The notes under the pieces were generated by a model. That model saw nothing but the letters and a program-made list of their open reading frames with translations. It was not told the origin of the DNA and did no database searches. Below are positions 1-398 of a DNA stretch of 552 nt, in pieces. Numbering within the stretch: position 1 is the first letter of the stretch; the number at the start of each line of letters is the position of its first letter. The DNA is from Escherichia coli (GTDB lineage Bacteria > Pseudomonadota > Gammaproteobacteria > Enterobacterales > Enterobacteriaceae): assembly GCF_003334255.1 (NCBI RefSeq), contig NZ_QOWU01000224.1. One strand, written 5' to 3'. The position numbers and the translations under genes were made by a program.

Positions 1-320
1 TCGTGGTGACATTGTCTGCAGTGCCAGCTGGCTTTACGCACCACGGGTAAGGCATCCGGTACGAATTGCTGCAGACGTTTAATCAACTGTATTTCTCTGC
101 GCTCCGGCCTGACATAAGGGCACTGTTGACCGTGCTCTGTCAGCCTGTCGTCAGTGTGTTCAAACCAGGGAAGTTCAGTTTCGTATTGCGGATGGTATCT
201 GAGTGCACTGCCACACAAGTGGCAGGTGTAGTTAGCATAAGGTGCGGCCTGTGCAGTACGGGCGCCCGTCAGACGTCCGTTGCCATCAAGAGCGATAAAG
301 GATTTTGCGTACATAGTCAT
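1..320 (-). CDS. Hypothetical cysteine/histidine-rich (putative zinc-ribbon) protein, N-terminal 106 codons; 3' end lies beyond the window. Start may instead be the in-frame ATG at 314..312.
   Basis: Manual reverse-complement translation: ATG at 320..318, frame open to position 1 (106 codons plus 2 nt), in-frame TGA upstream at 380..378 with no intervening ATG or GTG. GAGG lies 3 nt upstream of the first ATG. Charged-residue content is typical of a globular protein. Motifs: C33-x2-C36...H55...C67 and C101-x2-C104-H-H. Absent from the ORF track, presumably because no stop is reached inside the window. Confidence 0.6.
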   Translation of the reverse strand, partial: MTMYAKSFIALDGNGRLTGARTAQAAPYANYTCHLCGSALRYHPQYETELPWFEHTDDRLTEHGQQCPYVRPERREIQLIKRLQQFVPDALPVVRKASWHCRQCHH

Positions 321-323
321 ATA

Positions 324-327
324 CCTC
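324..327 (-). promoter_or_regulatory. Shine-Dalgarno-like GAGG (minus strand reads ctGAGGtatATG)
   Basis: Minus-strand sequence gctgaggtat immediately precedes the ATG at 320..318. Spacing is 3 nt to the first ATG (short) and 9 nt to the second ATG at 314..312 (acceptable). Confidence 0.45.
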
Positions 328-398
328 AGCCGCCAGACGACACGCAGGCAACAGCCGTCCCGGTACGGGCAGCGTGGTCAGGGTGTGAATGGCGGTTC

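Follow-up and report, generated by a model that had tools for sequence, protein, structure and literature searches.

The window analysed here is a stretch of 552 nt from Escherichia coli that corresponds to positions 8001–8552 of a locus (L001) in NZ_CP025892.1. The sole convincing gene of the window lies on the minus strand, in a frame that is stop-free from an ATG at position 320 (or from another at position 314) to position 1, ending ...VVRKASWHCRQCHH; the in-window translation of this frame closes with ...LPVVRKASWHCRQCHH. The remaining minus-strand frames are riddled with stops. RefSeq annotates the frame in L001 as WP_000270978.1, a "putative zinc ribbon protein" of 133 aa, and the 5' part of this CDS (314 nt) occupies window positions 1..314 on the minus strand while 88 nt run beyond position 1. 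The frame is a real gene: its product matches two Pfam domains (E = 5.5e-31 and 8.6e-9) and it is a RefSeq CDS. The opposite reading, a chance Cys/His run in a spurious frame with a plus-strand ORF at 66–404 as the true gene, has a TTG-initiated ORF of 112 aa in its favor and practically no chance of being right against a minus frame with two Pfam domains (of the order of 1e-31 and 1e-8), hundreds of homologs with invariant cysteines and a RefSeq CDS; the plus-strand ORF was rejected as a mechanical antisense ORF only.

Two in-frame start codons are present within positions 312–320. The ATG at 320 gives a protein of 135 aa and the ATG at 314 one of 133 aa. A Shine-Dalgarno-like GAGG, read from the sequence, stands 5' of the start codon at positions 324..327 (minus strand, running 327–324), 9 nt from ATG 314 and 3 nt from ATG 320. 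Homologs begin with MYAKSF or MFAKSF. Both the Shine-Dalgarno spacing and the way in which homologs begin favor ATG 314 (133 aa) as the start, and the residue numbers of an earlier note on this DNA, made from the letters alone, are therefore probably 2 too high. All residue numbers below take ATG 320 as residue 1 (the 135-aa version).

The protein carries a dense cluster, HCRQCHH, where it meets the edge of the window. The earlier note had assigned this cluster to residues 100–106, and minus-strand translation agrees; the placement at window positions 1–20 was right to within about 3 nt, the HCRQCHH codons actually lying at 23..3. The codons of the CxxC cysteines occupy window positions 18–20 and 9–11. 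Completion of the ORF beyond the edge added just 29 residues before the stop, with a C-terminus that reads ...WHCRQCHHDYYGEQYCTHCQTGGFSIPRTTQEEICEF and then ends. The residues across the edge are W-H-C-R-Q-C-H-H-D-Y-Y-G-E-Q-Y-C-T-H-C-Q-T-G-G-F-S-I-P-R-T-T-Q-E-E-I-C-E-F-stop. The rest of the motif, supposed earlier to lie outside the window, was found there as C114-T-H-C117, 10 residues on. The two CxxC pairs are 9 residues apart (HHDYYGEQY), the whole motif is C-x2-C-x9-C-x2-C, and the protein ends 18 residues past the last Cys. The Pfam family Zn_ribbon_11 (PF11682, "probable zinc-ribbon") matched residues 96–128 at the second of the E-values given above (8.6e-9, model positions 3–35 of 37), and the in-window part of this domain, residues 96–106, covers positions 1..35 of the minus strand. 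Within it, knuckle 1 of the ribbon, W99-H-C101-R-Q-C104, is encoded at 9..26 (minus strand), and H105 and H106 at 3–8 (minus strand). The cluster thus reads as the first half (knuckle 1) of a predicted C-x2-C-x9-C-x2-C zinc ribbon. Three CxxC pairs occur in the complete protein, where about 0.017 would be expected for a protein of this size with 1.15% Cys (P for three or more, about 8e-7), and this excess, together with the invariance of the cysteines in homologs, argues that the cluster is not due to chance. Zn_ribbon_11, a probable zinc-ribbon family of Enterobacterales, was formerly known as DUF3279; the protein is a direct member with no structural difference, and the allele in the window differs by an unusual richness in histidine beside the cysteines (H100, H105, H106, and H116).

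A word-indexed search returned 322 relatives, and a profile search run exhaustively over 1.84 billion representatives returned 251 matches at E ≤ 0.001. The family is small and includes many gene fragments. The best 150 of the 251 representatives are all at most 238 aa long, too short to accommodate an enzymatic domain fused to the protein. Conservation was read from two alignments, A1 with 64 close sequences and A2 with 31 sequences at 24–59% identity. In both, W99, C101, C104, C114, and C117 are invariant, and Y108, G110, G120, and S123 are nearly so. All 31 diverse relatives match Zn_ribbon_11 at E ≤ 0.001, and the pattern W-x-C-x2-C-x2-D-Y-x-G-E-x-x-C-x2-C-x-T-G is common to all relatives examined. 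The histidines behave differently in A2, where position 100 is H, F or Y, H105 is replaced by D/G/Q/R/N, H106 by E/R/S/N/T, and H116 is variable. Because H105 and H106 vary freely and position 100 alternates while the four cysteines never change, the histidines next to the cysteines are best regarded as bystanders and not as ligands. The comparison with homologs that the earlier note had proposed as a check on the cluster therefore divides it: the cysteines stood, all of them invariant, and the histidines did not, so the motif written there as C-x2-C-H-H loses its last two letters.

Alignments of this family have one pitfall. In the unfiltered first alignment about 7–9% of the sequences seemingly lacked the ribbon cysteines. 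These sequences are frameshifted alleles that carry KPAGTADNVTTIIMGS in place of WHCRQCHHDYYGE, and KPAGTADNVTTIIMGS is exactly the alternative minus-strand frame of the first 50 nt of the window (1–50). Alleles frameshifted just before the ribbon include those of proteins P0028, P0035, P0047, and P0053, and they imitate "non-conserved cysteines" in naive alignments. Since there are several such alleles, the gene seems to decay repeatedly at this spot in cryptic islands.

An HNH-like beta-beta-alpha metal site was among the architectures that the earlier note had offered for the cluster. On that account the cluster opens a nuclease site in which HH are the catalytic or metal-binding histidines and the CxxC pairs hold a structural zinc. 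Two CxxC pairs do flank the site in many HNH nucleases, and C-x2-C-H-H is what can be read in the window. The completed protein argues otherwise. The 9 residues between the CxxC pairs and the 18 after them are too short for a beta-beta-alpha-Me fold complete with Asn and helix, no conserved His, Asn or Asp lies between the knuckles, and H105 and H106 are substituted in relatives as listed above. The AlphaFold2 (AF2) model has no helix past residue 84, and no HNH-family Pfam match was found for the protein, for its paralog (see below) or among the matches listed for the 31 diverse members. An HNH site is extremely improbable, conservation and length having already refuted it, and the likeness to HNH or beta-beta-alpha-Me nucleases is superficial only, limited to CxxC pairs and histidines. 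A C2H2 or CCHH-type site, in which the metal would be bound by C101, C104, either H105 or H106, and a further His, with the downstream CxxC used for another purpose, would account for the unusual number of histidines near the knuckles of this allele. It is highly improbable as well, given that none of these histidines is conserved and all four cysteines are invariant, and that the paralog of the same operon has D-E in place of HH. Zinc-knuckle geometry makes a His directly after the second Cys of a knuckle a sterically poor co-ligand, which is general knowledge that also speaks against a CCHH site.

The cluster is very probably the N-terminal knuckle (C101-x2-C104) of a Cys4 ribbon, the second of two modules in an island backbone protein. 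In such a ribbon C101, C104, C114, and C117 would coordinate one structural Zn2+ tetrahedrally and pin a small three-stranded beta unit, and the adjacent histidines would not be zinc ligands. AF2 run on the 64-sequence alignment gave a model with a mean pLDDT of 80 and a pTM of 0.64. The N-terminal alpha/beta domain is modeled with confidence (pLDDT blocks of 84–93) and a helix spans residues 74–84. In the C-terminal unit the model has beta strands only (97–101, 107–110, and 123–125; block pLDDT 68–83), and the final 8 residues are disordered. The modeled arrangement of the C-terminal strands is suggestive of a zinc-ribbon layout. Resemblances in the PDB are local only, to units of the zinc-ribbon or rubredoxin type, namely Rpb12, Rpb9, and the C-terminal domain of rubrerythrin, with eL43 found by sequence (Foldseek E > 0.6, HMMER E > 0.06). 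PDB searches with the single sequence and with a profile gave nothing beyond eL43-type ribbons at E > 0.06, and the best 50 matches listed in AFDB50 belong to the protein's own family alone, with no link to another family. The protein shares two CxxC knuckles, on predicted beta-hairpins, with classical Cys4 ribbons and rubredoxin-like knuckles (Rpb9/Rpb12, eL43/L37Ae, and rubrerythrin), but these matches are non-significant, and homology to RNA polymerase is absent.

The N-terminal module belongs to DUF7828 (PF25165), which matched residues 4–89 at E = 5.5e-31 over model positions 1–87 of 87 (window 54..311, minus strand) and is matched by all 31 diverse members. The N-terminal 86 residues fit the full model and no difference from the family was found. 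Family members typically combine DUF7828 with a following Zn_ribbon_11. The module contains a first metal site, C33-x2-C36 ... (P-W-F-E-)H55 ... C67, at window 120..224 (minus strand), with the pattern C-x2-C-x18-H-x11-C, and conservation points to a predicted CCHC zinc site. C33, C36, F53, H55, and C67 are all invariant in A1; in A2 the first four are invariant and C67 is at least 90% conserved. The earlier note's expectation of two separate metal-binding-type clusters has thus been borne out by a CCHC-type first site and a CxxC/CxxC ribbon, and zinc-ribbon architecture, one of its options, is where the second cluster belongs, in Zn_ribbon_11. Zinc binding by both the four-Cys ribbon and the first site is a prediction from sequence. 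A distant member of 238 aa (P0139) carries an extra N-terminal DUF7828-like copy, C-x2-C...W-F-D-H...C, which is a tandem duplication.

The first cluster also resembles the zinc finger of CoiA_N (PF25164), in the form C-x2-C ... aromatic-F-E-H ... C. Sub-threshold matches to CoiA_N were obtained for 8 of the 31 members at E ≤ 0.1 (best 1.3e-3) and for none of the 31 at E ≤ 0.001; the paralog gave E = 0.39, and the match is non-significant for the window protein itself. DUF7830 gave sub-threshold matches for 7 of the 31. The likeness to CoiA_N concerns the first cluster and not the ribbon, and whereas CoiA has a PD-(D/E)XK nuclease domain after the finger, this protein has just a helix and the zinc ribbon there. 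The resemblance of the first cluster to CoiA_N and DUF7830 is a lead and not a demonstrated relationship.

The gene is a common one. The window was matched in 3783 of 5426 complete E. coli genomes (about 70%), the median being 2 places in a genome; matches at ≥99% identity were found in 2323 records, and the 552 nt are 100% identical in many E. coli chromosomes. The feature is already known as a catalogued domain, and thousands of E. coli genomes carry the gene under a zinc-ribbon annotation. Upstream lies a gene for a 189-aa protein (L001 8574–9143, minus strand) that matches YagK_YfjJ_C (4.8e-48) and REP_ORF2-G2P (3.3e-5), is named "inovirus Gp2 family protein" by RefSeq and ends 22 nt beyond window position 552. 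The REP_ORF2/G2P match suggests, weakly, a rolling-circle Rep-like signature. The upstream protein is 36% identical to YfjJ of K-12. K-12 YfjJ and YagK were considered as the zinc-ribbon proteins themselves and rejected; YfjJ is homologous to the Rep-like gene that lies upstream.

The arrangement, in which the zinc-ribbon gene is preceded by one of the YagK/YfjJ or REP_ORF2-G2P-like type and some loci have AlpA in between or next to them, recurs in Escherichia, Citrobacter, and Klebsiella genomes and in further contigs. Loci of the Citrobacter farmeri type have AlpA, a 108-aa gene, a 177-aa protein, a zinc-ribbon paralog, and a 193-aa Rep-like protein upstream, with a PTPS gene and then Dpd genes downstream. 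In Klebsiella the upstream genes encode AlpA, a 197-aa protein, and a 190-aa Rep-like protein and the downstream ones SNF2, AAA, and S8 proteins. Two further loci have a YagK-like protein and then AlpA upstream; downstream, one (L010) has genes for a MarR-family regulator and oxidoreductase-like proteins and the other (L012) an ars operon. On one short metagenome contig the neighboring 210-aa protein is not detectably YagK-like. In the CP4-57 island of K-12 (L002), yfjJ is kept, no annotated zinc-ribbon gene follows it, and the abpAB defence genes stand directly next; the pair is therefore not obligatory. Immediately downstream of the gene, relatives have entirely different DNA (L003 6651–12390, L007 6609–12387, and L012 5424–9718), the cargo being, in that order, PTPS and Dpd genes; SNF2 helicase, AAA, and S8 peptidase genes; and an ars operon.

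The far side of the locus carries DUF932, antirestriction, RadC, YfjP-like GTPase, and WYL genes, all of them typical of CP4-57/CP4-6-type islands. A phage origin was rejected, since tblastn against 50,697 phage records gave no match. Records labeled as plasmids carry the gene in only 33 of 72,556 cases, several of which are megabase replicons, and PADLOC gave no match for the protein and at best E = 0.063, to PDC-S64, for the paralog. With few plasmid records, no phage record and no PADLOC match, the gene belongs to the backbone of chromosomal CP4-57/CP4-6-type integrative islands in Enterobacterales and borders variable cargo. Its position in these islands is at the margin of a hotspot for cargo insertion. 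No significant PHROGs match was obtained for the zinc-ribbon proteins, and NCBIfam yielded no family for the protein, the paralog or the upstream gene.

Directly beyond window position 1 lies a downstream neighbor, a 144-aa paralog (L001 7491–7925, minus strand) that has 30% identity to the protein and the same DUF7828 and Zn_ribbon_11 domains (Zn_ribbon_11 E = 1.7e-18). Its ribbon reads W-F-C-V-M-C-D-E-D-Y-E-G-E-K-C-C-P-R-C-G-T-G, so that the cysteines align and the HH of the window protein corresponds to DE. The ATG of the paralog lies within the last 13 nt of the zinc-ribbon gene, behind AGGAGG. This 13-nt overlap suggests co-translation of the two genes by translational coupling, possibly into a heteromer.

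The product is a stand-alone protein of 133 aa with a DUF7828 module (C-x2-C...H...C) followed by the ribbon, and each four-ligand set (CCHC and CCCC) would bind a structural zinc. The protein has no detectable catalytic domain, and it may work without enzymatic activity, as a zinc-stabilised module that binds nucleic acid or a partner protein, with a role in island regulation or DNA processing alongside the Rep-like protein and AlpA. This functional assignment is tentative and less likely than not. The predicted pI is 6.7, near neutral, so bulk charge offers no argument for nucleic-acid binding; taken with the overlapping paralog, it makes protein-protein docking as likely as DNA binding.

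A rival to the functional part of this explanation only is that the ribbon mediates protein-protein contact and not DNA or RNA binding, with the paralog, the YagK/YfjJ Rep-like protein or RNA polymerase as partner. Zinc ribbons such as those of Rpb9, Rpb12, and the TFIIB type are frequently protein-docking units. Protein contact accords with this background, with Rpb9 and Rpb12 being the best, if weak, structural matches, with the near-neutral pI, and with the suggested co-translation and possible heteromer with the paralog. Many loci are single-copy and have no adjoining paralog, which counts against it, and the proposal carries about one chance in three. A more specific proposal is that the DUF7828/Zn_ribbon_11 protein is a dedicated partner of YagK/YfjJ Rep-like proteins, a two-zinc adaptor that might, for example, target or license the Rep-like protein or AlpA where the island backbone meets the variable and often defence-carrying cargo. 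The conserved synteny mildly favors such an adaptor, which is on the whole unlikely; if real, it would bear on the control of island replication, excision or cargo expression.

A literature search for DUF7828, PF11682, DUF3279, and Ybl85 found no relevant paper, and papers that name YfjJ or YagK concern the upstream-type gene and not the zinc-ribbon gene. Many members are labeled in UniProt and AFDB as "DNA-directed RNA polymerase, beta subunit/140 kD subunit" or "ribosomal protein L37AE/L43A". The UniProt names are unsupported beyond generic zinc-ribbon likeness and look like propagated annotation errors. Annotation of the locus can do without an HNH nuclease, and the histidines of the cluster should not be taken for ligands. 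What the locus offers is an island backbone protein that about 70% of complete E. coli genomes encode, frequently in at least two copies, and that is constantly associated with YagK/YfjJ Rep-like genes, some loci also having AlpA nearby.

The intergenic region of 254 nt upstream of the gene was included when the locus was searched against Rfam, which gave no RNA family, and a scan for promoters and terminators gave nothing above shuffle expectation. A direct repeat of 14 nt, GCCGCCAGAC(G/A)ACA, occurs in this region as the copies GCCGCCAGACGACA and GCCGCCAGACAACA (13 of 14 positions identical) at window 329–342 and 517–530. The copies are 188 nt apart and one of them adjoins the ribosome-binding site; the repeat may be an operator or may have arisen by chance.
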